In this document: positions 54,127 to 54,163 of the stretch, in pieces
How the letters are laid out: each line of letters opens with the position of its first letter
Position numbering within the stretch: the first letter of the stretch is position 1
NCBI RefSeq assembly: GCF_017348835.2
Contig: NZ_CP071375.1
Length of the DNA stretch: 64,000 nt
Source: Escherichia coli
Lineage (GTDB): Bacteria > Pseudomonadota > Gammaproteobacteria > Enterobacterales > Enterobacteriaceae
Reading direction: 5' to 3' (one strand)
Program-made: the position numbers and the translations under genes
The notes under the pieces: model-generated
What the model was told of the DNA's origin: nothing
What the model saw: only the letters and a program-made list of their open reading frames with translations
Database searches by the model: none

Positions 54127-54163
54127 CTGTATATACTCACAGCATAACTGTATATACACCCAG
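54127..54163 (+). promoter_or_regulatory. Tandem LexA (SOS) boxes of the lexA promoter
   Basis: CTGTATATACTCACAG (54127-54142) and CTGTATATACACCCAG (54148-54163), both matching CTGT-N8-ACAG, immediately upstream of lexA. Confidence 0.9.

Follow-up and report, generated by a model that had tools for sequence, protein, structure and literature searches.

Tandem LexA boxes, both short of the consensus, directly upstream of lexA-dinF in an Escherichia coli genome

The two LexA boxes found at positions 54127 to 54163 of the 64-kb stretch of Escherichia coli DNA analysed here (the window) very probably belong, at about 0.93 by our estimate, to the native promoter-operator of the E. coli lexA-dinF unit, where LexA limits expression of its own gene by way of two operators of middling strength that are about equal in effect and, on the measurements made so far, independent of each other. 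The 109-bp intergenic region between dgkA and lexA is identical base for base to the lexA promoter region of strain K-12, and the LexA protein is also identical to that of K-12. Both boxes are present in this region, and the initial annotation was right to call both operators intact.

The lexA double operator of this strain is standard, already known, and unchanged from K-12. In this strain, as in nearly every E. coli, the lexA autoregulatory region is the standard one and LexA is wild-type, which in itself matters little. The useful outcome is a set of corrections to the description of the region, namely that box 2 does not have the form CTGT-N8-ACAG and carries a Dcm site at that place, that the operators are sub-consensus, and that the label "cooperative" was unsupported when tested.

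Sequence of the boxes and layout of the promoter

Positions 54120 to 54175 of the window were read as ccttttgCTGTATATACTCACAGcataaCTGTATATACACCCAGggggcggaATG. Box 1 (CTGTATATACTCACAG, positions 54127 to 54142 on the plus strand) is the upstream operator, called "operator II" by Kozuch et al., and is the lexA site entry in Table 4 of PMC3009722. Box 2 (CTGTATATACACCCAG, positions 54148 to 54163, plus strand) is the downstream operator, or "operator I". The corresponding plus-strand 20-mers are TGCTGTATATACTCACAGCA for box 1 (54125 to 54144) and AACTGTATATACACCCAGGG for box 2 (54146 to 54165). The gap between the boxes is 5 bp (CATAA), the box centres are 21 bp apart, and the lexA start codon at 54172 lies 8 nt past the end of box 2. 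The initial annotation had located two LexA-type boxes, separated by this 5-bp gap, ahead of lexA and dinF, and all of this (coordinates, gap, and gene context) was correct; the order of lexA and then dinF downstream of the boxes was confirmed by NCBIfam profiles and by the annotation of an identical record.

The boxes had also been described as two consensus sites, each of the form CTGT-N8-ACAG. It was found in a motif scan that CTGT-N8-ACAG has a single match in the 64-kb window, which is box 1, whereas box 2 reads CTGT-N8-CCAG and was picked up only when the core was relaxed to CTG-N10-CAG. Therefore, the description is exact for box 1 but fails for the right arm of box 2. Both boxes share the CTG-N10-CAG palindrome around an AT-rich centre, but compared to the 20-bp consensus TACTGTATATATATACAGTA there are 5 mismatches in box 1 and 6 in box 2. 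Both are mid-to-weak operators, and the statement that both are consensus sites does not hold. A search for TACTGTATATATATACAGTA with up to 3 mismatches gave no match anywhere in the 64-kb window, because the real operators stand further than this from the consensus. Real operators rarely equal the consensus, and therefore the mismatches do not affect the assignment of the boxes to the LexA operators; only the wording "consensus" is affected.

The strength of the boxes was evaluated with a symmetrised weight matrix that was built from the LexA sites in Table 4 of PMC3009722 (18 sites, from which the lexA site was removed to leave 17). Box 1 scored 19.18 bits and box 2 scored 18.12 bits, and these were the top two sites in 64 kb, the next best site in the window having a score of 10.91 bits. 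Exact score distributions gave a chance expectation per 64 kb of 0.012 sites at the score of box 1 and 0.024 sites at the score of box 2. The 17 training sites span 13.05 to 28.33 bits, and both boxes are inside this range; therefore, the boxes are real operators, but they rank in the lower half of known operators by strength. The Berg-von Hippel heterology index was 6.43 for box 1 and 7.99 for box 2, relative to a range of 0.27 to 8.94 for the same 17 sites. Indices of about 6.3 and 8.3 have reportedly been published for the two lexA operators. A weight-matrix scan of this kind had been proposed in the initial annotation as a check, with no mismatch to the consensus expected; the scan ranked the boxes at the top and far above chance, but mismatches to the consensus were present.

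The operators overlap the promoter or the transcription start. The lexA −35 hexamer is placed at 54109 to 54114 on the plus strand (TTCCAA), as judged from where it lies and from the layout published for this promoter (PMC7440846), and is separated by a 17-nt spacer from the −10 hexamer at 54132 to 54137 (TATACT, plus strand), which is within box 1. The upstream operator has likewise been described as overlapping conserved sequences to which RNA polymerase binds (PMC7440846). The hexamer TTCCAA shares only 3 of its 6 positions with TTGACA, and for this reason the lexA promoter was not called in a scan for sigma-70 consensus promoters. The target cytosines of the lexA Dcm sites have been numbered +17 and +45 (PMC9210283), and because CCAGG sites start at 54160 and 54188 in the window, the lexA transcription start would be at approximately 54145 (54144 to 54145, plus strand), such that box 2 would cover about +4 to +19.

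Weaker look-alike sites were also evaluated. The bare core CTG-N10-CAG occurs 26 times in the window, compared to 11.8 times in dinucleotide shuffles, but about 30 occurrences are expected from the frequencies of the CTG and CAG trinucleotides, and other spacings of these trinucleotides give 20 to 39. The enrichment was therefore rejected as evidence, because the abundance of CTG and CAG accounts for the 26 cores, and the bare core is uninformative. One of the look-alikes, at 54086 to 54101 on the plus strand (CTGGTTTATTGTGCAG), is a third CTG-N10-CAG site upstream of the lexA promoter, with a score of 6.76 bits (about 9 such sites are expected per 64 kb) and a heterology index of 14 to 18. 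A putative third upstream operator has been tested and found to be non-functional (PMC7440846), and we infer that the site at 54086 to 54101 is probably this "operator III"; it was rejected as a third operator on its score of 6.76 bits and on the published mutagenesis. The third-best matrix site in the window (TACTGGGTATTCATTCAGAC, 10.9 bits) is at 39395 to 39414 and overlaps the beginning of a minus-strand ORF of 491 aa (37933 to 39408); it was rejected as a LexA site because its score is at the level of chance, with 1.4 such sites expected per window.

Tandem boxes in other species

Other genomes, one per species, were searched with the pattern CTGTAT-N7-CAG, a gap of 1 to 12 nt, and CTGTAT-N7-CAG, which yielded at least 120 loci. 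This sample is conditioned on the two-box pattern and is therefore silent on the number of species that have only one box. Among the matches listed, 88 of 120 tandem-box loci were directly upstream of a lexA homologue. As in the window, lexA is immediately preceded by two CTGTAT-N7-CAG boxes in other Gamma- and Betaproteobacteria (Pseudomonas, Vibrio, Haemophilus, Shewanella, Pseudoalteromonas, and Burkholderia).

The gap between the boxes in the 88 lexA-adjacent pairs among the matches listed was 3 bp in 41 pairs, 5 bp in 20, 4 bp in 18, and 2, 6, 8, or 9 bp in the rest. In contrast to the 5-bp gap found here, the lexA operators of Pseudomonas and Shewanella in these matches have a 3-bp gap, those of Vibrio, Haemophilus, Aeromonas, and genera of the Burkholderia group have a 4-bp gap, and those of Pseudoalteromonas have a gap of 8 to 9 bp, with Pseudoalteromonas and its relatives being among the pairs with gaps of 2, 6, 8, and 9 bp. 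The 5-bp gap was found mainly in Enterobacterales among the matches listed, including all loci with a LexA identity of at least 85%. On the evidence of this sequence comparison, the lexA double operator is ancient and conserved, whereas its helical phasing is not.

The distance between the end of the proximal box and the lexA start was 3 to 11 nt in 78 of the 88 loci among the matches listed (the 88 include L031, L049, L023, L005, and L104 of our sample), and the commonest distance was 8 nt (30 loci), which is the distance in the window. With the proximal box 3 to 11 nt from the start codon, the lexA leader is very short, and the box abuts the ribosome-binding region. Unlike the arrangement in the window, dinF came after lexA in only 10 of 81 lexA loci elsewhere among the matches listed, all of them in Enterobacterales.

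A second set of 13 pairs among the matches listed (L012, L014, L020, L025, L050, L060, L064, L068, L071, L077, L085, L101, and L107) had a constant gap of 6 bp, most often TTTATA, and preceded ORFs of about 553 aa with closely similar N-termini. These loci are from Enterobacterales apart from one Shewanella, and the ORF of L014, which was tested, is a RecN equivalog. The recN promoter resembles that of lexA, with a tandem of two full LexA boxes shortly ahead of an SOS gene, but it differs in the target gene and in the gap of 6 bp as opposed to 5 bp at lexA. Therefore, each SOS gene with a double operator would keep a characteristic spacing within a lineage. Most of the tandem-box loci outside the lexA and the ~553-aa ORF sets were scattered matches in unrelated taxa, among the matches listed.

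Repression by the two operators and alternative readings

Point mutations in each operator of the K-12 promoter resulted in a specific loss of LexA-dependent repression, with about equal effects of the two operators, and the inactivation of both operators fully abolished repression; the operator mutations abolished repression in lexA+ cells, but not in ΔlexA cells (PMC7440846). The claim that lexA is autoregulated through these operators is thus borne out, in that the sequence is identical to that of K-12, in which each operator was shown to repress. LexA-dependent repression by each operator, in the absence of detectable cooperativity, was described for the identical K-12 sequence, and we would expect it to carry over to the strain analysed here.

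The gene that directly follows the double operator encodes an intact LexA. The lexA coding sequence (54172 to 54780, plus strand, 202 aa plus stop) gave a match to the NCBIfam equivalog TIGR00498 (289.5 bits), and the protein is identical over 202 aa to PDB 7b5g_A, which is the crystallised wild-type E. coli LexA. The cleavage site Ala84-Gly85 and the catalytic residues Ser119 and Lys156 are all present.

In the mechanism that we propose, one LexA dimer would bind to each of the two 20-bp operators, and LexA on either operator (box 1 with the −10 hexamer, or box 2 at about +4 to +19) would hinder RNA polymerase, resulting in negative autoregulation. DNA damage would lead to RecA filaments that stimulate LexA self-cleavage at Ala84-Gly85, after which the LexA level would fall, the operators would become empty, and lexA would be transcribed, with dinF transcribed along with it by read-through. 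The initial annotation had gone further and taken the intact boxes as an indication of a functional SOS circuit in this strain. Such a circuit requires intact operators and an intact LexA, but these do not suffice; the window contains neither recA nor the remainder of the regulon, and therefore a working SOS circuit is not inferable from the window alone.

Three other readings of the boxes were weighed against autoregulation through two independent operators. The reading of the boxes as chance matches within AT-rich intergenic DNA has a probability of practically nil and is already excluded: the bare core is common (26 in the window, with about 30 expected), but here two sites of at least 18 bits are separated by 5 bp, whereas chance would give about 0.02 of each in 64 kb, they are immediately upstream of lexA and invariant across E. 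coli, and tandem boxes precede lexA in 88 of 120 loci of other species among the matches listed. It might also be supposed that one operator, most likely box 2 with its Dcm site, mainly serves methylation or a second factor and not simple LexA repression. The C that breaks the ACAG arm of box 2 creates a Dcm site, CCAGG, at 54160 to 54164 (in the extended form CCCAGGG at 54159 to 54165), and the second CCAGG, at 54188, is inside lexA. Methylation of the site in box 2 is specific to stationary phase and is hindered by LexA (PMC9210283). Furthermore, among the cross-species matches listed, close relatives of E. coli (Escherichia albertii, Citrobacter, Enterobacter, Leclercia, and Superficieibacter) also have CCAG at the end of the box, whereas several more distant Enterobacterales (Pectobacterium, Photorhabdus, Morganella, Budvicia, and Acerihabitans) have an ACAG (AACAG) or ACCAG arm; as far as the aligned sites indicate, this distribution across Enterobacterales agrees with the statement made in PMC9210283. 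However, LexA binding, RNA polymerase activity, and lexA expression were all unaffected by 5mC, and a CC to AA change that removes the Dcm site and restores ACAG left promoter activity and regulation unaltered (PMC9210283), which largely refutes such a role for Dcm, and no second factor is known (PMC7440846). We consider that a main role of either operator in methylation or in the response to a second factor is highly improbable.

The third reading is the cooperative autoregulation claimed in the initial annotation, in which LexA dimers on two operators that are two helical turns apart would touch, bind cooperatively, and so sharpen autoregulation. With 21 bp from centre to centre, the two dimers would sit on one face of the helix, operator pairs ahead of lexA are widely conserved, and the idea, an old speculation, has been repeated in the literature (PMC7440846). 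Curves of lexA repression in vitro had Hill slopes of about −2.4 to −2.6 (around −2.5), but with confidence intervals so wide (PMC9210283) that the curves are compatible with some cooperativity as well as with none. In vivo, however, a matched single-operator promoter was indistinguishable from the wild type, with the same UV dose response, sensitivity, dynamic range, kinetics, and fitness, and "no evidence of interdimer cooperativity" was found (PMC7440846). The gaps in the 88 lexA-adjacent pairs among the matches listed (2, 3, 4, 5, 6, 8, and 9 bp) also argue against it: because the gap varies from 2 to 9 bp across lineages, the helical phase is not conserved, which is a poor fit to a contact of fixed phase, and a conserved pair without conserved phasing is more in keeping with two independent sites than with a contact that depends on phase. 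Cooperative binding therefore seems unlikely to us, and the evidence did not bear out the term as it was applied to this region. The two operators are independent as far as measured, namely by the in vivo reporter and fitness comparisons of one study (PMC7440846).

The gap drifts from 2 to 9 bp, yet the proximal box is 3 to 11 nt from the start in 78 of 88 loci among the matches listed. If cooperativity is absent from this pair of operators, there may be a different reason for conserving the second one. One tentative suggestion, on which we would not place much weight, is that the second operator, which is distal to RNA polymerase at the promoter, is conserved as a post-initiation roadblock or because it occludes the short leader and ribosome-binding region.

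Conservation in E. coli and neighbouring genes

The gene order plsB, dgkA, lexA, dinF, yjbJ, and zur is the same as that of K-12. Relative to K-12 MG1655, there are 38 substitutions across the dgkA-dinF region, 8 of which are in lexA and leave the protein unchanged. The region is present in 5,425 of 5,426 complete E. coli genomes, and of the 5,415 E. coli genomes with a match to the 41-bp operator pair, 5,407 carry it unchanged. One of the 5,426 complete genomes was without a match to the dgkA-lexA junction, and in one genome the match sits on a record labelled as a plasmid.

It was found that 20 kb around the site is 100% identical to the E. coli pig isolates PE164 and F2_81, in which the annotated genes are malK-lamB-malM, a SopA-family gene, ubiCA, plsB, dgkA, lexA, dinF, yjbJ, and zur. 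An O157:H7 genome was not collinear with the window. The ORF annotated as a "SopA family protein" is 1,581 nt long and lies at about 47766 to 49346, between malM and ubiC in record NZ_CP114128.1 (100% identical); it is also present in the O157:H7 record.

The dinF gene, encoding a MATE efflux transporter, is at 54853 to 56178 on the plus strand (441 aa by the RefSeq start), and the protein matched NCBIfam NF007690 with 908.6 bits, aligned over positions 1 to 440 of 441. In the K-12 annotation, dinF starts at the equivalent of 54799 (459 aa), within a hairpin between lexA and dinF; the start at 54853 is supported by PGAP and by the 441-position NCBIfam model. This hairpin (54791 to 54820, plus strand) is strong and terminator-like, with a T-run (TTTGTTTTT), and lies 11 nt past the lexA stop. 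The stem is GC-rich and 13 bp long, and the 86-nt stretch from 54775 to 54860 around it folds at −28.7 kcal/mol (z = −3.05). The sole difference from K-12 in the hairpin, at 54807, falls in the loop, and in E. albertii, Enterobacter, Klebsiella, and Leclercia, lexA is followed by hairpins of unrelated sequence. A scan of positions 53000 to 57500 with Rfam at a permissive threshold found no RNA family. The location of the hairpin between lexA and dinF suggests that dinF is expressed by partial read-through from lexA.

Downstream of zur there is a 340-aa ORF (57379 to 58401), which spans a region that in K-12 holds two separate genes, yjbL and yjbM, with a DNA identity of about 95%. This ORF had no NCBIfam match; it is annotated as a member of the DUF2713 family in the identical record, and has a lysine- and aspartate-rich repeat near the N-terminus.
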